A stretch of 64,000 nt of DNA from an uncultured Bacilli bacterium. Its GTDB lineage: Bacteria > Bacillota_I > Bacilli_A > RF39 > UBA660. The stretch is from positions 96,863-160,862 of the forward strand of contig CAKOSO010000001.1 of NCBI GenBank assembly GCA_934102355.1. The letters run 5' to 3'. Made by a program: the position numbers and the translations under genes. The notes below the pieces were generated by a model. The model saw only the letters and a program-made list of their open reading frames with translations. It did no database searches and was not told where the DNA came from. This document shows, one piece after another, positions 46,666-54,567 of this stretch (the first letter of the stretch is position 1; every line of letters begins with the position of its first letter).

Positions 46666-46739
46666 GCAGATGTAGTTTAATGGTAGAACCTCAGCCTTCC
46701 AAGCTGACTACGTGGGTTCGATTCCCATCATCTGCTCCA
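46666..46739 (+). tRNA. tRNA-Gly (anticodon UCC)
   Basis: GCAGATGTAGTTTAATGGTAGAACCTCAGCCTTCCAAGCTGACTACGTGGGTTCGATTCCCATCATCTGCTCCA. Anticodon loop CTTCCAA. CCA is encoded. Confidence 0.9.
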
Positions 46740-46750
46740 TTTGAAGACAA

Positions 46751-46781
46751 CTTACGGACTAAAGTTCGTAAGTTTTTATTT
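46751..46781 (+). terminator. rho-independent terminator after tRNA-Gly
   Basis: CTTACGGACTAAAGTTCGTAAG hairpin followed by TTTTTATTTT. Confidence 0.55.
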
Positions 46782-46837
46782 TATAAAAATATAATGTAGA
46801 AATAGTTAGTTTTTTTGTTATGTAAAGGAGCCTTTTT

Positions 46838-46957
46838 ATGTTAAATATAGAAACAAAAGAATTAAAAATAAATGATAAATTAAAAAGAAAAATTGAGATG
46901 ATTGGAAGATTTACTAATACTACTACAATTATAAATAATGGTTGTGTTAAAATATAA
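46838..46957 (+). CDS. small hypothetical ORF (39 aa) with strong RBS; not in ORF track
   Basis: AAAGGAG is 8 nt before the ATG. Product MLNIETKELKINDKLKRKIEMIGRFTNTTTIINNGCVKI. Confidence 0.3.
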   Translation: MLNIETKELKINDKLKRKIEMIGRFTNTTTIINNGCVKI

Positions 46958-46980
46958 CAGGTACAAATGTTGCTTATGTT

Positions 46981-47211
46981 ATGCCACATATCATTGTTAT
47001 TAAGAATAATAAATACCTAATGTTTGATGAATGTAATGATACTTATGTAAATACTTTTAAAATCAAAATATCATTTAAAGATTTAGAAGGTAAAAGCCAC
47101 AAAAAAATTACAAACATCTACAATAAAGAAAATATTTTAGGTAAAACTTGGAGAGATTTAATAAGAATAATACCTATAAAAGATAATGATAAATTTAAAG
47201 TAACAAATTAG
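46981..47211 (+). CDS. hypothetical protein (76 aa)
   Basis: ORF-track ORF on the plus strand downstream of tRNA-Gly. It has no obvious RBS and no recognisable motif. Confidence 0.25.
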   Translation: MPHIIVIKNNKYLMFDECNDTYVNTFKIKISFKDLEGKSHKKITNIYNKENILGKTWRDLIRIIPIKDNDKFKVTN

Positions 47212-47293: not shown

Positions 47294-48064
47294 CTAAATC
47301 TTTCCTATAAACATTTCTGTATGAAAATCAAAACGAACGATGTCATCTTTTTTATATTTATTAAAAATAGTTATAATACCATTTATAAACTCATCATAAT
47401 ACTCACTATCTTCTTTTGGAGCATACGATAATGATTTAGATAACCCTATTAGCATATCTATAGTATAATCCTTAGAATGGATAAATGTATAAGTCTTATA
47501 TTCACTATTCTTAAAAAAATTTTTACGATCATCAACATTTTTATGTTGATATGTTTTACCAGTAAGTTTAGTATTCCAAGAGCTTATATATTTGAAGTAT
47601 TCCTTACTAAATTCATTATTTTCATCTTCCCAGTCATTCCAAACTATTGCAAAATATCCATTAGATTTTAATATTTTATTTACTTCTTGTTTTAATTTTT
47701 GTTTATCAAACCAATGAAAGCTTTGAACTGCAAATACTATATCAACTGAATTTTCAGGCAATTCTGTTGATTCTGCACTTTTATTAATATAAACAATATT
47801 ATCACAATCATTGCAATATTCTTTTCCTTTGTTAATCATATCAATATTTGGTTCAACATAATAAATTTGTTTACAATACGAACTTGCTATTTTAGAAAAC
47901 TTTCCAGTTCCTGCTCCTAACTCAACTATAATTTTATTTTTAATATTGTATTCTTTTGATAAAAAATCAAAAAGTTCAATTGGATATGTAGGTCTATATT
48001 TTGAATAGTCTTCTTGTTTTCCAAAATAAAATTTTTTACTATCTTTTTCCACATTATATTTCAT
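47294..48064 (-). CDS. class I SAM-dependent methyltransferase
   Basis: SAM-binding motif VELGAGTGKFS and a Methyltransf_11-like core. Confidence 0.7.
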   Translation of the reverse strand: MKYNVEKDSKKFYFGKQEDYSKYRPTYPIELFDFLSKEYNIKNKIIVELGAGTGKFSKIASSYCKQIYYVEPNIDMINKGKEYCNDCDNIVYINKSAESTELPENSVDIVFAVQSFHWFDKQKLKQEVNKILKSNGYFAIVWNDWEDENNEFSKEYFKYISSWNTKLTGKTYQHKNVDDRKNFFKNSEYKTYTFIHSKDYTIDMLIGLSKSLSYAPKEDSEYYDEFINGIITIFNKYKKDDIVRFDFHTEMFIGKI

Positions 48065-48118
48065 ATAATCACCTTTACAAAATTATACTATAAAATAACA
48101 AAATTCTCCATACTCCCA

Positions 48119-48268
48119 TTGAAATTTAATAAGAATTTATATATAATATTTTTAGAAAGAGAGCGTTATGATTCGTAAGTTGTAGCTTAACCGCTCCAAA
48201 TTGATAGGAAACTCGGAAATTAACTTCTGAGAATAATAAGTGCTAACTAGAAATAGTTAGTTTTTTTT
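48119..48268 (+). ncRNA. small-RNA-like element E1: sigma-A promoter (TTGAAA-17-TATAAT) + ~110-nt conserved RNA + intrinsic terminator
   Basis: -35 at 48119-48124, -10 at 48142-48147. Transcript begins AGAAAGAGAGCG and contains GTAAGTTGTAGCTTAACCGCTCCA. Terminator GCTAACTAGAAATAGTTAG + T8 at 48242-48268. A paralogous copy lies at 49131-49248. Confidence 0.4.
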
Positions 48269-48334
48269 AATATAAATTTTATTATATAAAAAGATTAGTT
48301 GTATTTCAAACTAATTCAATCAACAAATTGTAAT

Positions 48335-48838
48335 TTATCTTTTAACTTTTTTAATAAATAGGAAGTAAACGATTATAGGTATTATTATTAAATCTGGTAT
48401 AGTAAATGTTCTAACTAGTATATAATTTCCAATAATTGTTACTAAAATAAGTCCTATTGATATAAATTTGGCAAATAATCCTTCTTCTTTTGTTTTCCAA
48501 GTAAAATAAGCAAATAAAGGCGATAAACAAGAAAATATTGTCCAACCTTTGATAAAATTCCAGCTATATACTGCATTTGTTAATTCTGCTGTTACATAGT
48601 ATGAAATTAGCATTCCTATACAAAATGGAAATATATTTATCATTGCTTTTTTCCTTGTATCACTATATATCGAAATCAATATTCCTAATAGTACCCATAT
48701 TGGTAAATCTGAAAACATATATCCAAGTGTCATCATAAATAAATTGCCAACAAAAAGTATATCCAATAATTTGCTTATTATTCCTAAAATAGCACCTATA
48801 AAAAATAATGAAATAGGATTTAATATATATTTCTTCAT
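48335..48838 (-). CDS. hypothetical polytopic membrane protein (167 aa)
   Basis: 5 predicted TM helices. No assignable family. Confidence 0.5.
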   Translation of the reverse strand: MKKYILNPISLFFIGAILGIISKLLDILFVGNLFMMTLGYMFSDLPIWVLLGILISIYSDTRKKAMINIFPFCIGMLISYYVTAELTNAVYSWNFIKGWTIFSCLSPLFAYFTWKTKEEGLFAKFISIGLILVTIIGNYILVRTFTIPDLIIIPIIVYFLFIKKVKR

Positions 48839-48860
48839 AAATTATCTCACTTTCAAATTA

Positions 48861-49028
48861 CTATTTTTCTTTCTTATCAAACGAAATTAAACAAGCAATA
48901 ATAGAAAATAAAGTTCCAAATAAAATCATGGCAAATCTTCCTATACCATCAATTTCAGTAATAATTCCATAATCTAAAATTCCTATTCCTAAAATCATTA
49001 AAACAATTTTAAATATATTCTTTTTCAT
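48861..49028 (-). CDS. small membrane protein (55 aa, 2 TM); not in ORF track
   Basis: RBS AAAGGAGGACATT before the ATG. Product MKKNIFKIVLMILGIGILDYGIITEIDGIGRFAMILFGTLFSIIACLISFDKKEK. Confidence 0.45.
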   Translation of the reverse strand: MKKNIFKIVLMILGIGILDYGIITEIDGIGRFAMILFGTLFSIIACLISFDKKEK

Positions 49029-49130
49029 AATGTCCTCCTTTAACTATTTGTCTTTCAGTTCTATGTATAATTATAACATGAAAATAGATTTTAATTATTA
49101 AAATATTATTAAAAAGTTAATTATTAAAAT

Positions 49131-49248
49131 TTGTCATTTAAGAAAAAATGATGTATAATCATATATAGAAAGAGAGCGAGTTTGTAAGATGTATTTAAAC
49201 TGCTCCATTGAGAGAATTACTCACACCTTGTGTGAGTTTTATTTTTAT
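49131..49248 (+). ncRNA. small-RNA-like element E2 (paralog of E1): promoter TTGTCA-17-TATAAT + conserved RNA + terminator
   Basis: -35 at 49131-49136, -10 at 49154-49159. Transcript AGAAAGAGAGCGAGTTTGTAAGATGTATTTAAACTGCTCCATTGAGAGAA. Terminator ACTCACACCTTGTGTGAGT + T-run at 49219-49248. Confidence 0.4.
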
Positions 49249-49736
49249 AGAATATCCTATATCACTTGTTGATATGGGCTTTTTTCATTACTAAAGAATT
49301 TGATAAATCAACTAATATAACTTTAGAAAAATCTAAACGAATCAAAGAGAAATTGTTAATAATTTTAAACCTACAAAACTTACTAAAAATAATTATATAA
49401 TTAGTTACGATGATATAAATACCATTAATGAATATATAAAAAATGTTGATAGTAATGTTAGTAAAATTATTGAAAAGCCTAAAAAATACTTAGAAAAAAT
49501 CATTAGACTTTCTTATTAAAAACTATATAGCAAGAATAAAAAAGATTCAATTTATGGAGATGTAATAATTGAGATGTCAGATAACGGATTTTTTAGTAAT
49601 GAAGATAAAAACTATATTGAAACTACTATTAATAAAATTAAAAATGAATCAAATTTTGATTATTATATTAATGACTATGAAACAAAAAAATAATGATGAT
49701 TACGAATCATAACAATTCACAATTATCATCATTTTA

Positions 49737-52628
49737 TTAAATTACCTTTTTTAAAGTTTTTCCATTTTTTAAAGAAATCGAGCTTATTTCGTTATTAGCT
49801 CTTTCATCTGATGAATTATTAAATGTTTCTATATCTCCAGTTATATAACTTATAACGTACCAATCATCATTACAATAAACTTCTTTTAAATCTTCCACAT
49901 CTATTACTTTATAGGATTCTAAAGTATTATTTCTTTCTGCTTTTACATATCTTAAAGCATTAACTTTCTTATTCATAATTTTTACATAATCCTCTTCATA
50001 AGATTCATCTTTTGAATAATACATAATATCTTTTCTTTCATCTTGATATGTCAAATAACTTTGACCTAAATTAAATACACCATTTCCTCTAATTAAATAT
50101 TGAACATTTTTTGAATCTGAATATCCAACTTTTTCAATCGGTTGAGGCAAAACATCAACAAATTTTCTATTACTTCCTAATCTACTTCCAAAATCTTTAT
50201 ATTCCAGATCACAATCTTTTGCTATTAAACAAGGATATTGTTCAATACCTTTTATTTCTTTGTCAAAGTTAGTAAATCCAATTGTAACATTTTTAATACA
50301 TTTTTCTATTCCTTCTGATTGATATGAAGTTTTTATTACTTCATCCGCAGCTTGTAAATATACATCAAAGAAATCTACTGAGTTTATTTTTTTAGAAATT
50401 TCAATATTATCTAAACATAATAAATCCCCATTTCTCCATATCCAACTATGTGCTAAAATTTCATTACCCTTTTTAACTACCAATATTCTACCATTATTAC
50501 TTGTTAAAGAATGCTTTAAGCACGAATAACCGTTACCCAATACAGTAAAACAACAATCTGTTTTATTGCCTATGGCTAATGCCTCCATATCATCTAACCT
50601 TAATATTTCATAAGAATATTCATTTTTAGTACCTTTAATTCTTGGTATTGTAGAACTTACTCTAGCTAACATTTGATCATGTAATAATAAAGTTTCATTT
50701 ACATTACTATTACTGCATCCAATAAATTTAAATAATCCCTCTAAACGATAATATTTAGATGGTAATGATATTTCATCACTTTTTAAAAAATCTACTATTA
50801 TTTTTAATGATTTATCTTTATCATTCATGGCAATTACTTTCCATTCATTAAATATTCTTGGAAAATATTTATATAAATCATTATCTTTGTTAGATAACAT
50901 TTCTTTCATTTTAGAATAATTTTTATCACTAAATAATAAATTCATTAACTTAGTATTTAATATTGGGTTACTTTGTTCATCTAATTTAACGCTTTTAATA
51001 TCAACATTACCTATTAAATGTTCTAATACAGGTAATGTATCATCTATTTCTAATAAAGCTCTTGCATTATTAAAACCCACCATTAACATTAATTTTAAAA
51101 TTAACTGTTTATAAATTCTAAAATGCCAATCACTTTTTTCGAACTTTTTATATAATTGTTTATGTTGTTTAACATTATAATTTTCTAATTGTTCTACTGT
51201 AAAATCTTTTACTTTAAAATCAATTTGACCTAATCTATTAAATATAGTTATTTCTTCAATACTTGATAATTGATATAGTATCGTAATTGATTTACCCATA
51301 ACAATTCTATAAAATAATTTTTCTATTTCTTTAAAATTGTTATTTTCAATATTATTTATAATATTTTGATTTTTTAAAAATAATATAAAATTTGATAAAT
51401 GTTGTTTATAGATTTTATCATTTTTTGAAATAGCATTATTTTGCAACATTTCTTTAAGTTCACTTAAATTATTTAAATATTTCTCTGAAAAAATTGAAGT
51501 TGTTACATCTATTTCTTCTAATATACCTTTATTCTTAATATTATTTCTATACTTTGTTTCAATATATCTTAATGCAGATACATCTCCCCTATGTAAATAA
51601 GAAGTATAAAACTTTGTATCAAATAATTCTTCTATATTATCTATTTCAAAAGTATCTAATATATTTTTTAAATCATCATTAATTGTTTCAATTTTAGAGC
51701 ACAATTTAATCCAATCATTTAAAGTTAATGACTTAAAAACTTCTTTATTATTACTATACAAATCTACAATAATTCTAGGACTTATTTCAGATAATATCTT
51801 TTTAATATCTTGTTTCTTAATTATATTTTTAAAAAATTTTGGTATTAAAATTTCTTTCTTGATGCTATAAGTTTCACTTAAATATTTTTCTAAATCATAT
51901 TCATCAATATTGGCGAAAGCAAGATTTAATTTAACATAATGTTTATTTACAAACTCTTTATATACTTCTGTATTATCTATATATTTTAAAAATGATAAAA
52001 GTTGTCTGGGATTAAATGTATTGATTTTATCATTAAACACATCTAAAAAATAGTTCATAAATTCTTCATTATACACTTTTTGTTGTTGAAAAACATTATT
52101 CATTTCATTTGTATTAGCATTTTCATAACAACATCTATTATGAAAATACACTCCATGAATAAATTTTCTATTTTCTATTTCAATTAAATCAGTATAAAAT
52201 TGATTATAAAAAGAATAATAATCTTCATGAGTAAATCCGTGAAATAAATTTTCAGGATTTTGATTTATAACTCTTTTAAATATTTCTACGTCGATATTCT
52301 TTAATTCTTTTAAAACATTAAAAGAGAAAAAATAAGATAAAGATTTAGGCTCCATCATTGTATATAAAAATATATCTTTATCATGTTCTTTTATATATTT
52401 AATATTTTCCTTTAAAAACGCTATTTGTCTTTCTTCTGGTAATTTACTAATAATATAATAAATAGTAAGAGGCGTCATATCATTAATAGCTTTATCACCA
52501 TTCTTAATATATTCATAACATTCTTTAAGTGCTTTTTCTTCATTTTTCTTACCAACATTTAATGAAAGTGATATAAGATTTGTTTGTTTCAATAAATCTT
52601 TCATTTGTTCATCAGTTAATTTTGGCAT
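49737..52628 (-). CDS. large hypothetical protein (963 aa), last gene of 4-gene operon; possible C-terminal Cys/His peptidase-like region
   Basis: No nucleotide-binding motif. The C-terminal third has GNKTDCCFTVLGNGYSC...AHSWIWRNGD (candidate Cys-His-Asp arrangement). Followed by a minus-strand terminator (AATGATGAT...ATCATCATT + T7). Confidence 0.6.
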   Translation of the reverse strand: MPKLTDEQMKDLLKQTNLISLSLNVGKKNEEKALKECYEYIKNGDKAINDMTPLTIYYIISKLPEERQIAFLKENIKYIKEHDKDIFLYTMMEPKSLSYFFSFNVLKELKNIDVEIFKRVINQNPENLFHGFTHEDYYSFYNQFYTDLIEIENRKFIHGVYFHNRCCYENANTNEMNNVFQQQKVYNEEFMNYFLDVFNDKINTFNPRQLLSFLKYIDNTEVYKEFVNKHYVKLNLAFANIDEYDLEKYLSETYSIKKEILIPKFFKNIIKKQDIKKILSEISPRIIVDLYSNNKEVFKSLTLNDWIKLCSKIETINDDLKNILDTFEIDNIEELFDTKFYTSYLHRGDVSALRYIETKYRNNIKNKGILEEIDVTTSIFSEKYLNNLSELKEMLQNNAISKNDKIYKQHLSNFILFLKNQNIINNIENNNFKEIEKLFYRIVMGKSITILYQLSSIEEITIFNRLGQIDFKVKDFTVEQLENYNVKQHKQLYKKFEKSDWHFRIYKQLILKLMLMVGFNNARALLEIDDTLPVLEHLIGNVDIKSVKLDEQSNPILNTKLMNLLFSDKNYSKMKEMLSNKDNDLYKYFPRIFNEWKVIAMNDKDKSLKIIVDFLKSDEISLPSKYYRLEGLFKFIGCSNSNVNETLLLHDQMLARVSSTIPRIKGTKNEYSYEILRLDDMEALAIGNKTDCCFTVLGNGYSCLKHSLTSNNGRILVVKKGNEILAHSWIWRNGDLLCLDNIEISKKINSVDFFDVYLQAADEVIKTSYQSEGIEKCIKNVTIGFTNFDKEIKGIEQYPCLIAKDCDLEYKDFGSRLGSNRKFVDVLPQPIEKVGYSDSKNVQYLIRGNGVFNLGQSYLTYQDERKDIMYYSKDESYEEDYVKIMNKKVNALRYVKAERNNTLESYKVIDVEDLKEVYCNDDWYVISYITGDIETFNNSSDERANNEISSISLKNGKTLKKVI

Positions 52629-52648
52629 GATATTATCCTCTTTCTTTT

Positions 52649-54235
52649 TTATTTTTTAAATTTATTAAAATCTATTTTTAATACTCTTTGAACTGGTTTA
52701 GATATACTTGTATCTAATTTTCTTAATTCCGCTTTTGCTTGTTCTCTTGTAAATTCATATATTCTATCACAATATTCAAATCCTTCAGCAAAATGTTCTG
52801 CTGTAATAAATTCACTATCATAAACTTTTGCAAATGCAAACGCCTTGTCAACAATAGATATTGCTAAATCTGGGTTATTAACGCTATCATTATATACTCT
52901 ATGCCTTTTTTCAGTAGCATTTAATATAATATTTACTATTTGAGTTCTTATATTTTCATTTTCAAAAGATATTCCACTTTTTATATAATAATCCCCAATT
53001 ACCTTATCCACTATTTGATATAAAATATCTTCATTAGGTTCTTTAACAATAATTTTTTCAAATCTTCTTTTTAAAGCATCATCACTAAAGAATTCTTGAT
53101 ATTCTTTTTCAGTTGTTGTTCCAATTACTTTTAAGTTAGATCTATCTATATAATGTTTTAACATAGATGACATGTCGTTATTTTTACCTACAGTTGAACC
53201 AAGACCATATATTGTATGAATTTCATCTATAAATACTATTACATCTAATCTTTCACATAGCTTCATTAATTTAGTCACGTTATCTTCAAACATTCCAACG
53301 TATTTACAGCCTGCAACTATATCACTTGGATTAACCTCCAAAATTATTTTTCCTTGTAAAAAGTTTGACACTTGTCCAGTTTTAATTCTATAAGCAAGTT
53401 CATCTACTATAGCAGTTTTACCAACACCTGATTCACCAACTATTAATGGTCTCTTTTTATCTTGAGCTAAAGTAATTATAAGATTTTTTAGTTCTTTTCC
53501 CCTTCCAATAGTCGGTGCAACTACATAATTCTTTCTATTTAATATTTTCCCATATTTTTCAAGTTCTGAAATATCTCTATCAGATAATGTTACAGTTACT
53601 GTAGAAGCAGGATTTTTTTGTTTTACTGATACATTATTAGCAACAGCAGGTTTAGCTTCTTTAAGTTGATTATTTTGTTTAACCTTAGAATATCTTTCTT
53701 CAAATTTTTTCTTAAAACTTTCTATTTGTTTTTTAGAATATTGCTTTTGAAAAATCATTGCTTCCAATAAATTTCTGCCTTCTGAACAAACCTTAGTACA
53801 ATCATATCCATTAGAACATAATAAATCATAAATTCCTTCAACTTCGCCTAAATAATCATCACTATATATTGCAGTATGCATAATAGTGTCTTTATCACTA
53901 TCAACATGATTAACATTTAAATTATATTTTAATGCTTCAGTAATAATATTTAAAATAAATTCTTCACTATATCCAGCATATAAAGCAGTTTGAATAAAAT
54001 TATAATTATAATCTGCTTCTAAATTTGGACTTAATCCAAATTTTAATAATGATTTAATTGCAAGGAAACATTTCGCTTCATCATACTTATCATCTACTAA
54101 AATATGCAAAATAGATTGATTATCTTCATCTATATAATCTATACCTCCAAATACACTCTTAATTTTTTTTACATTAGAATGCATATTATCTGTCATTTTT
54201 GATAATAAATTTTTTATATTATTTTCGCTTAACAT
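52649..54235 (-). CDS. ankyrin-repeat + ClpA/ClpB D1-like AAA+ ATPase (single AAA+ module)
   Basis: N-terminal degenerate ANK repeats (NQSILHILV...LLKFGLSPNL; DTIMHTAIYS...LLCSNGYDC). Walker A GESGVGKTAIVDELAYRI is near-identical to ClpA/B D1. Walker B VIVFIDEIH, sensor VIGTTT, Arg finger ALKRRFEKI. Start at MLSENN with RBS GGGAGGAA. Confidence 0.65.
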   Translation of the reverse strand: MLSENNIKNLLSKMTDNMHSNVKKIKSVFGGIDYIDEDNQSILHILVDDKYDEAKCFLAIKSLLKFGLSPNLEADYNYNFIQTALYAGYSEEFILNIITEALKYNLNVNHVDSDKDTIMHTAIYSDDYLGEVEGIYDLLCSNGYDCTKVCSEGRNLLEAMIFQKQYSKKQIESFKKKFEERYSKVKQNNQLKEAKPAVANNVSVKQKNPASTVTVTLSDRDISELEKYGKILNRKNYVVAPTIGRGKELKNLIITLAQDKKRPLIVGESGVGKTAIVDELAYRIKTGQVSNFLQGKIILEVNPSDIVAGCKYVGMFEDNVTKLMKLCERLDVIVFIDEIHTIYGLGSTVGKNNDMSSMLKHYIDRSNLKVIGTTTEKEYQEFFSDDALKRRFEKIIVKEPNEDILYQIVDKVIGDYYIKSGISFENENIRTQIVNIILNATEKRHRVYNDSVNNPDLAISIVDKAFAFAKVYDSEFITAEHFAEGFEYCDRIYEFTREQAKAELRKLDTSISKPVQRVLKIDFNKFKK

Positions 54236-54567
54236 ACAGAATTCCTCCCTAAATAGTTGGTGGTTATTATAACATAATATCAAAATCAATACAATATCTA
54301 AGTATGTAAAATTTCCACTTAGAATTCACAAAATAAGGTAATTTTTAATTTCTATTAATTAGAAATGTTAAAATTAAAAAGGTATTATGAATATAGTAAT
54401 AGAAACATTGATATAATATAAAACATTTAAAAGATCAACTTATTCAAGCTGATCTTTTAAACTTTATTTATTTTCTTCTCGTTCAGAATAATACTCCGGT
54501 ACATCCAGATATAGCCATACCCACAACTTCATTACCATTATGATATTCATATTGAACATTATCAGCT

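Follow-up and report, generated by a model that had tools for sequence, protein, structure and literature searches.

The window analysed here is a 64,000-nucleotide stretch of DNA from an uncultured Bacilli bacterium (assembly GCA_934102355.1, contig CAKOSO010000001.1, positions 96,863 to 160,862). Our subject is a pair of plus-strand modules in it, E1 (48119-48268) and E2 (49131-49248), each of which consists of a sigma-70 promoter, a shared segment (45 nt in E1, 41 nt in E2) and a terminator, together with the tRNA-Gly(UCC) gene at 46666..46739 on the same strand. An earlier note on this DNA had read the two modules as stand-alone small RNAs (sRNAs) or orphaned riboswitch-like leaders; comparison with other genomes points instead to the ends of mobile elements.

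The E1 promoter is TTGAAA-17-TATAAT (48119-48147) and the E2 promoter, which is kept in all copies of the E2 type, is TTGTCA-17-TATAAT (49131..49159). Both have 11 of 12 consensus matches in a promoter scan, as the earlier description 'near-consensus' implied, and promoter-like sites in this AT-rich region are not enriched overall (47 observed vs 44 expected). The shared 5' segment proposed earlier is also real: AGAAAGAGAGCG occurs exactly twice in the 64 kb, at 48154 and 49167, with 0.2 occurrences expected, and the alignment of E1 with E2 runs on through GTAAG.TGTA..T.AAC.GCTCCA. A profile of the two (nhmmer) matched them at E = 4e-16 and 2e-11, and no third copy was found with it in the window or in the first ten loci. 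The E1 core lies at 48154..48198 and ends in GCTCCA (48193-48198). It is preceded by a divergent promoter region (48065..48153), in which the plus-strand promoter points outward and a minus-strand promoter-like site (48110-48082) faces the neighbouring cargo gene. The E2 core (49167..49207, with GCTCCA at 49202-49207) has a 4-nt deletion compared with E1. Behind the E1 core follows a trailer that we assign to class C (48199..48268), with a small hairpin and the terminator CTAACTAgaaaTAGTTAG plus T8, and behind the E2 core a trailer (49208..49290) with the terminator ACTCACACCTTGTGTGAGT and a T-run (49219-49246), followed by a second hairpin (49256-49278) beyond which it is truncated. The intrinsic terminators noted earlier are present in both modules: that of E2 was scored by the scanner at 49219-49237, and that of E1 (48243-48268) has too few G-C pairs for the scanner, yet it folds. 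Moreover, no intact plus-strand gene follows either module in the list of open reading frames (ORFs), again as first described. The tRNA-Gly gene was called by Rfam (71.4 bits, 46666-46736) and by ARAGORN, and it is the sole GTTCG..GCTCCA match in the window; its 3' end, GTTCGATTCCCATCATCTGCTCCA, would be the left arm of the integration site discussed below.

E copies form a family with a junction at GCTCCA

One genome per species was scanned with the pattern GAAAGAGAGCG N2-14 GTAAGNTGTA, which gave 50 loci (loci from other genomes carry L numbers below). All are homologous except one Bryobacteraceae match, which is chance, and the remaining 49 come from gut metagenome-assembled genomes (MAGs) whose record titles name uncultured Bacilli, Mollicutes or 'Clostridium sp. 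CAG'; the genome-wide search suggested in the earlier note thus yielded 49 further copies. They are of two types, with a 45-nt core as in E1 or a 41-nt core as in E2. GTTCG is present in 47 of the 49 at the position where E1 carries ATTCG, and E2 carries GTTTG in place of this otherwise invariant motif. The conserved stretch is made up of the core and ~100 nt upstream of it, a divergent promoter pair, and it stops sharply at GCTCCA. In an alignment of 44 sequences the conserved upstream columns are the TTG of the -35 box, TATAAT, and an ATTATA ~73 nt upstream, which is the -10 box on the minus strand and faces the neighbouring gene; the spacers vary. Past GCTCCA the sequence belongs to many unrelated classes, which are common to E1-type copies, E2-type copies and true tRNA-Gly genes and which also occur behind unrelated arms, so that GCTCCA behaves as a junction. 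In seven genomes, 617 to ~1500 nt upstream of E2-type copies are 97-100% identical, up to the contig limits, and are joined to seven different trailers. Likewise, the 324 nt upstream of E2 in the window (including a gene for a 55-aa protein) are 94-95% identical in L061 and L094 and are joined to a different trailer in each of the three. Judged from positions in the locus table, a contig ends within ~100 nt of about nine or more of the copies, and several genomes hold two copies, both of which fit a repeated sequence. In almost all loci that extend far enough, E is preceded at ~20-175 nt (mostly ~100) by the start of a gene on the minus strand whose identity varies from locus to locus; in other genomes, the cargo beside E includes methyltransferase, lipoprotein-like and MATE-like proteins and enzymes.

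L052 holds, beside its canonical copy and near an LSR (large serine recombinase) fragment, a second and more diverged E copy, AGAAAGAGAGCATTATGGTTCGTAACCTGCTGTTTAACCGCTCCA (minus strand, oriented ~6114), hence diverged members exist that the scan pattern missed. Viral contigs gave 0 matches to the 3' pattern and 38 to the 5' pattern, all of them chance save a doubtful partial one in L027 (7397-7490 of viral contig IMGVR_UViG_3300033186_000039). There, AGAAAGAGAGCGTATTCGTAAGCTGTATTCA...GATTGATAGG is partly E1-like, with no promoter and no GCTCCA, and the locus ends; this may be a diverged fragment or chance. A small conserved ORF inside E was considered and rejected, as E1 offers only ATG-5 codons-stop and E2 has no equivalent.

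The genes linked to E are those of a mobile element. An LSR adjoining E was mapped in 14 loci (tblastn), and the proteins of L086 and L065 carry the Pfam domains Resolvase, Recombinase and Zn_ribbon_recom, the combination that defines an LSR. Upstream of E and on its strand, 16 loci contain some or all of a ~90-aa ORF, the ~600-aa recombinase, a TnpV homologue (Pfam TnpV, 1e-29) and a NikA-like protein, which Pfam also confirmed; the ~90-aa ORF matches no Pfam family, and no relaxase was seen in the E elements despite the NikA-like protein. Downstream of E a new element begins in 14 loci, with a terminator and a ~90-aa ORF that starts ~100-150 nt past GCTCCA, and in 7 of these 14 an LSR comes next. 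In nine loci and in the window, E is preceded on its own strand by a tRNA-Gly(UCC) gene at a distance of 0.5-6.4 kb. E is hence associated with LSR, TnpV and tRNA-Gly.

Segments that have tRNA-Gly(UCC)...GCTCCA on the left and E...GCTCCA on the right occur in L086 (3.9 kb), L089 (6.4 kb), L074, L088, L054, L097, L072 and the window. In L086 the 3.9-kb unit is complete and runs from tRNA-Gly through a trailer, the ~90-aa ORF, LSR, TnpV and cargo to E, behind which lies a different terminator, and L089 is its complete 6.4-kb equivalent, bounded in the same way. An intact element of 3.9-6.4 kb thus comprises tRNA-Gly, a trailer with one or more terminators, the ~90-aa ORF, LSR, TnpV, in some cases the NikA-like protein, cargo on the opposite strand, and E. 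In L082, two intact elements stand in tandem, and their recombinases are only ~30% identical. Right-end arms of other sequence are arranged alike: those of L001 (5930-5790) and L100 (4130-3930), both on the minus strand, are mutually unrelated, show promoter-like -35/-10 hexamers by eye and end in GCTCCA, and behind each come a trailer, a terminator and an ORF similar, again by eye, to the ~90-aa family (split in L001, frameshifted in L100). Several element lineages therefore appear to share the layout outward promoter, GCTCCA, terminator and ORF, and the hexamers in unrelated arms suggest that the promoter, and not this particular RNA sequence, is what is selected.

The linked genes, the joining of one arm to many trailers, the near-identical flanks, and the multiple and contig-terminal copies are features of a recombination junction on a repeated mobile element and not of a chromosomal RNA gene. 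We consider it likely, with a probability of about 80%, that E1 and E2 are right-end attachment modules (P arms) of small integrative mobilizable LSR elements that integrate at the 3' end of tRNA-Gly(UCC). The two modules are real and non-random, yet, so read, they constitute no new RNA class and are relic right ends of tRNA-Gly-specific serine-recombinase elements.

Proposed attachment site and outward promoter

We reconstructed attP by joining the last 34 nt of E to the 34 nt behind the tRNA-Gly at the other end of the same element. The result is a ~48-bp imperfect inverted repeat centred inside GCTCCA. In every case the best centre falls 4 nt short of the CCA end, between C72 and U73 in tRNA numbering; written out at 48-60 bp, the site is AGTTCGTAAGCTGTAGCTTAACYGC|TCCATTTGAATACAACTTACGGAC. 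With class D trailers, the type behind the tRNA-Gly of the window, this attP-like symmetry amounts to 14-17 of 28 matches in six pairs (L086, L089, L074, L088, L054 and the window), and shuffled right arms did as well in 2-72 of 2000 trials; E1 and the tRNA-Gly trailer of the window itself give 16 of 28 (13 of 2000 shuffles). The symmetric motif GT(T/C)CGTAAG(C/T)TGTA is present on both arms, ~10-24 bp from the centre, and the GTTCG of the tRNA-Gly T-arm sits 4 bp nearer the centre than the motif of E. Structural work on LSR attachment sites places the distal motifs a few bp closer to the centre in attB than in attP, which serves as a lead here and not as a test. The last ~28 nt of the E core (GTTCGTAAG.TGTA...C.GCTCCA) would then be one half of the recombinase attP, with the crossover inside GCTCCA.

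The resemblance of E to tRNA-Gly, which had been taken for a tRNA 5' part fused to its own 3' end, comes down to two features, the common GCTCCA core and a GTTCG that is T-arm-like and lies at a distance from the centre greater by 4 bp. When E1, E2 and tRNA-Gly are aligned, as had been suggested, GCTCCA is common to all three and the similarity to the 5' part (AGATGTAGTTTAA) is marginal, since shuffled sequences match as well in 93-126 of 2000 trials for E1 and in 8-17 of 2000 for E2. Moreover, the 5' ends of tRNA-Gly differ among the other hosts while E stays constant, and TGTAGCTTAA, which had suggested a tRNA D-arm, belongs to the recombinase-site motif. Of the earlier proposal of decayed, att-like, tRNA-derived repeats tied to the tRNA-Gly at 46666, the att part is thus retained, in that E1 and E2 mark att junctions of elements whose integration site is the 3' end of tRNA-Gly(UCC), and the fusion is given up in favour of an element-borne att-site arm that shares GCTCCA and a shifted GTTCG with the tRNA.

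The position of the promoter suggests how the recombinase may be expressed. The ~90-aa ORF and LSR lie on the same strand as tRNA-Gly and E, and in L086 no promoter-like site was found between tRNA-Gly and the start codon of the ~90-aa ORF. The same interval contains two terminator-like hairpins, the second of which, AATGTTCTCTTCTAGAAAGGAGAACATT followed by TTTT (3917-3890, minus strand), holds the ribosome-binding site of the ~90-aa ORF and ends at its ATG; a similar sequence occurs in L097 (2575-2620). Through the L086 hairpin, the recombinase operon could be attenuated in transcription and in translation alike. The outward promoter of E in L086 again has 11 of 12 consensus matches. By its placement, the outward promoter of E probably transcribes the recombinase operon in the circular state: excision and circularisation would bring it upstream of the otherwise promoter-less operon of ~90-aa ORF and LSR, which it would drive through the attenuating terminators, and expression of the recombinase would be state-dependent and on in the circular form. 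In the integrated state, the promoter would make only a short terminated transcript, the 'sRNA' of the earlier reading. Transcription would start ~17 nt ahead of the arm to which the recombinase binds, and a bound recombinase could therefore repress the promoter. Finally, the tRNA-like features of E (GTTCG and GCTCCA) may let an occupied site accept further elements and so give rise to tandem arrays. The term 'orphaned leader' was in this respect close in spirit, as E is probably a promoter plus leader into the recombinase operon once the element is circular.

Alternative explanations

Two related readings assign a function to the RNA itself. In the first, which we regard as improbable, a canT-like E RNA would pass polymerase from the right-end promoter through the terminators of the recombinase operon, where polymerase from the tRNA-Gly promoter stops, so that recombinase would be produced in the circular form only, and E would in addition be, as DNA, a portable mimic of tRNA-Gly (GTTCG and GCTCCA), a fresh landing pad from which a serine recombinase would build cassette arrays behind tRNA-Gly. 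The second, to which we give slightly less credence, takes E for a cis-acting regulatory RNA, either a riboswitch-like aptamer or a canT-like processive antiterminator leader, that controls read-through into the recombinase operon. The order promoter, conserved leader, variable hairpin, terminator and genes is consistent with such an RNA, and so are a recombinase operon that lacks its own promoter and has two terminators before it, and the promoter-like site (by eye) with which unrelated right-end arms also begin. There is also a precedent in Tn916, where canT is an element-encoded cis-acting RNA antiterminator that acts after excision (PMC11658703). However, the Rfam scan proposed in the earlier note gave, at the gathering score, only tRNA-Gly and a tRNA-Leu in the window and no family at E1 or E2, which agrees with its author's failure to place the modules in a riboswitch class. 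Under permissive thresholds (Rfam 15) the best non-tRNA match was SAM/SAH, at 29.9 bits against a cut-off of 40 (E = 7e-4; 49201-49239, minus strand). It arises from the E2 terminator hairpin together with AATGGAGCA, the reverse complement of the att core, and we rejected it as chance, because it is on the wrong strand and sub-threshold, its loop is reduced from 12 nt to 1, and no start codon follows the supposed Shine-Dalgarno sequence. A predicted two-helix fold of E leaves 94.8% of the cells paired, but its covariation score was reached by 143 of 500 shuffles, with one double change in one sequence and a diversity limited by the search pattern, and the folding z-scores of -1.5 (E1) and -3.0 (E2) are mostly terminator-driven. 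Moreover, one E is joined to unrelated terminators, which makes direct anti-terminator pairing unlikely, and the conserved segment is mostly explained as a recombinase-binding arm. What lies downstream of E, element genes (~90-aa ORF, LSR) or unrelated and opposite-strand genes, has no common function or metabolic theme.

Somewhat more doubtful again is the reading of E1 and E2 as functional small RNA genes, tRNA-like with a mature CCA 3' end, which merely serve as chromosomal integration sites. A near-consensus promoter and a terminator, 41-45 nt that are highly conserved over ~49 MAGs and end in GCTCCA, and a well-paired fold whose G-U pairs are valid on the plus strand only would all suit such genes, and LSR elements directly downstream in 7-14 loci are as expected for an attB. 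Nevertheless, neither ARAGORN nor the Rfam tRNA model found a tRNA at E in the window or in the 49 loci, no other family was matched, and the covariation does not exceed that of shuffled sequences. E does not occupy a stable chromosomal locus, in that both neighbours are variable (the upstream one is, almost without exception, cargo that varies), flanks from different species are 97-100% identical, and several copies occur per genome, often at contig ends and in the window only 1 kb apart. LSR, TnpV and NikA lie upstream on the same strand in the 16 loci mentioned above, complete elements span tRNA-Gly to E, and E is the inverted-repeat partner of the left end of the element. Thus the reading of E1 and E2 as stand-alone sRNAs or orphaned riboswitch-like leaders, as originally worded, is not upheld, given the lack of an Rfam match, of covariation and of a common downstream function in these data and a module that travels with mobile-element genes. 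A role of E1 and E2 as antitoxin-like sRNAs in a type I toxin-antitoxin system, a thought prompted by the 55-aa hydrophobic protein gene divergent beside E2 and the 167-aa membrane-protein gene between E1 and E2, is very improbable, since the predicted E transcripts overlap neither gene, unrelated cargo stands beside the same E in other genomes, and the 167-aa cassette occurs in ten other contexts without the E core (nhmmer), the only weak match there being the shared trailer after a true tRNA-Gly in L001, L009 and L010.

Several points weigh against the reading as attachment modules. The attP symmetry is not significant in the shuffle test for class A, B and C trailers or for the trailer of E2 itself, and E junctions of these kinds are therefore read as abutting the left end of a different tandem element. 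The scheme does not account for arrays with a foreign left end behind E as the product of an LSR, whose attL and attR are normally inert. In L077 (1950-4320), one and the same terminator, ATTTGTACTCCCAYAYGGGAGTA, stands behind the tRNA-Gly(UCC) and behind both of two diverged E copies, and the short units between these repeats hold a small ORF and a gene pair of 194 aa and 277 aa; three identical right arms are not predicted by a simple attL/attR scheme. One predicted hairpin pair of E shows G-C, G-U and A-U, which leaves some probability to a structured RNA.

The scan pattern fixed GAAAGAGAGCG, GTAAG and TGTA, so that conservation there is partly circular and diverged members were missed; GTTC, GCTCCA and the promoter are conserved without help from it. 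To reach the recombinase operon, transcription from the outward promoter would have to pass one or two terminators and may need read-through or antitermination. Finally, the whole reading comes from sequence comparison, in which excision, the circular form and the transcript are predictions.

The probable decayed array in the window and related systems

The order of features in the window, tRNA-Gly, a left-end remnant, a broken ~90-aa ORF, a methyltransferase gene, E1, a second left end, membrane-protein cargo, E2 and a third left end, is that of a decayed tandem array. The class D left-end trailer (46740..46796, plus strand) contains the terminator AACTTACGGACTAAAGTTCGTAAGTT and a T-run, called at 46749-46774, and tRNA plus trailer would form the attL junction of an LSR element. 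In L086, L089 and L097, a trailer of this type lies between tRNA-Gly and the ~90-aa ORF with its LSR, and one is also found behind tRNA-Gly in L088 and L054. Just past this terminator lies TAGAAATAGTTAGTTTTTTT (46797..46816, plus strand; family D8 of the repeat search), a 20-nt direct repeat that is 100% identical to 48248-48267, 1451 bp away, and that represents only the 3' half of the terminator hairpin with which E1 ends. This suggests a rearrangement, deletion or recombination joint inside the array. Its appearance would fit the opening of a circular unit at the terminator instead of at GCTCCA. It is followed by a frameshifted remnant of the ~90-aa first ORF (46832..47211, plus strand; ORFs 46838-46957 and 46981-47211, beginning MLNIETKELK), to which the ~90-aa family matches in tblastn at 46832-46951 and 46954-47085, and no recombinase gene comes after it. 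In L001, a whole E1-type terminator stands behind a true tRNA-Gly(GCC) and before an ORF that starts MLNIETKELK and resembles the window ORF at 46838. Since this 3' flank of tRNA-Gly(GCC) matches the 3' part of E1, the 3' half of E1 is sequence that elsewhere follows a real tRNA-Gly. The class C trailer of E1, which is homologous to that L001 trailer, is also 97% identical over 69 nt to the trailer behind the E2-type copy of L096, which precedes an MLNIETKELK ORF; in the window, it would be the left-end arm of another element, cut off past the terminator. As for the trailer of E2, the same ~85 nt occur in L100 behind an unrelated arm that ends in GCTCCA and before a frameshifted ORF that is ~90-aa-like by eye only, and we rejected on this ground the idea that it is a native tRNA-Gly terminator; the L100 arrangement directly favours its reading as the left-end arm of a different element type.

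The cargo genes are all on the minus strand. A class I SAM-dependent methyltransferase (47294..48064; Pfam Methyltransf_11, E = 1.9e-16) is divergent from E1 and would be the cargo of the first decayed element. In the cargo slot of the second lie the 167-aa membrane-protein gene, a single-gene cassette of ~570 bp (48304..48873, CDS 48335-48838), and the 55-aa membrane-protein gene from the ORF list (48861..49028), which adjoins E2 and is divergent from it. Homologues of LSR, TnpV and NikA had no match anywhere in the 64-kb window (tblastn), and both E copies are mutated in GTTCG, hence we file them as relics. An empty site of the same species was not found, as cysteine desulfurase beside the tRNA is on record only in one identical arrangement. 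The exact 167-aa protein is indexed in 9576 assembly blocks, and ten loci with its gene represent five distinct gene contexts in which the common stretch is only ~570 bp at 98-100% identity. These contexts include conjugative elements with a relaxase and type IV secretion system, a site beside Shedu SduA, and one between spore genes and rpsI/rplM; the protein has a weak DUF6518 match. Beyond the array, the minus strand at 49737-54289 encodes two proteins, one of 963 aa without a Pfam match and one of 546 aa with an AAA ATPase domain and a weak ankyrin match. They may form a defence-like pair or be the cargo of another decayed island; downstream, the plus strand of the window yielded no additional GCTCCA-type junction.

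Among known systems, Tn4451/Tn4453 resemble the E elements as small mobilizable elements with an LSR at one end and a TnpV homologue. The Tn4451 promoter is reportedly split across the circle joint, unlike the complete -35/-10 promoter in the right end of E elements, which differ further in having a NikA-like protein with no relaxase seen and a ~90-aa first ORF of no known family. That the circle joint of Tn4451 forms the tnpX promoter is stated in the title of Lyras & Rood 2000, cited in PMC13023037. The Tn4451/Tn4453 family are integrative mobilizable elements with a 2-bp crossover and, for Tn4451, low target specificity (PMC5704250), whereas E elements are site-specific for the 3' end of tRNA-Gly(UCC). 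In layout (tRNA-Gly, terminators, ORF and LSR, outward promoter at the far end), E elements parallel ICEKp1, which is integrated next to a tRNA gene and whose integrase is transcribed from the promoter of that tRNA in the integrated state and, once the element is excised, from a promoter at the 3' end, with attenuating stem-loops ahead of int (PMC13023037). For ICEKp1, ICEclc and ICEEc1, the same paper reports state-dependent switching of the integrase promoter, with stem-loops or a terminator in the 5' leader that attenuate read-through. These three are large conjugative elements of Proteobacteria with tyrosine integrases, whereas E elements are 4-6 kb long, have a serine recombinase, and are known from gut Bacilli as sequences.

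The ssrA islands of Dehalococcoides share with E elements a serine recombinase, a target at the 3' end of a small structured RNA gene, and tandem islands. Their CcrB-like recombinase targets the 3' end (T-loop region) of tmRNA, each island is bounded by a repeat of the gene 3' end, a conserved motif that does not align with the gene lies just upstream of the repeat, and islands without integration modules are taken as cis-mobilizable elements (PMC3146451). They differ in the tmRNA target and in two recombinases on the reverse strand beside attL, and no outward promoter module is described for them. Decayed cis-mobilizable elements (CIMEs) have lost the recombinase and kept their att sites, and elements that arrive later at the site are stacked with them (PMC5704250), a description of accretion that the array in the window (tRNA-Gly, E1, E2, no LSR) fits. 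Accretion is best documented for tyrosine recombinases, whereas the E arrays belong to LSR elements; tandem SCC elements with serine recombinases, as in SCCmec-type composite islands, are also on record (PMC11470126).

Two convincing 'orphan sRNA genes' are thus explained as scars of mobile elements, and a false annotation of non-coding RNA is avoided; as sRNA candidates they are of low interest, and for specialists in mobile elements the interest is moderate. The elements belong to a very small (~4-6 kb) serine-recombinase family that is widespread in uncultured, little-studied gut Bacilli and that we did not find described in a limited full-text literature search. Site-specific LSRs with short, defined att sites are tools for genome engineering, and the LSR of this family has a predictable target, with a ~48-bp attP and a tRNA-borne attB. 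E elements target the 3' end of tRNA-Gly(UCC) without disrupting the tRNA gene, carry a cargo slot that would be expressed from the conserved divergent promoter, and stack into arrays, and their layout makes them a compact model in which to study state-dependent expression of the recombinase by serine-recombinase elements.

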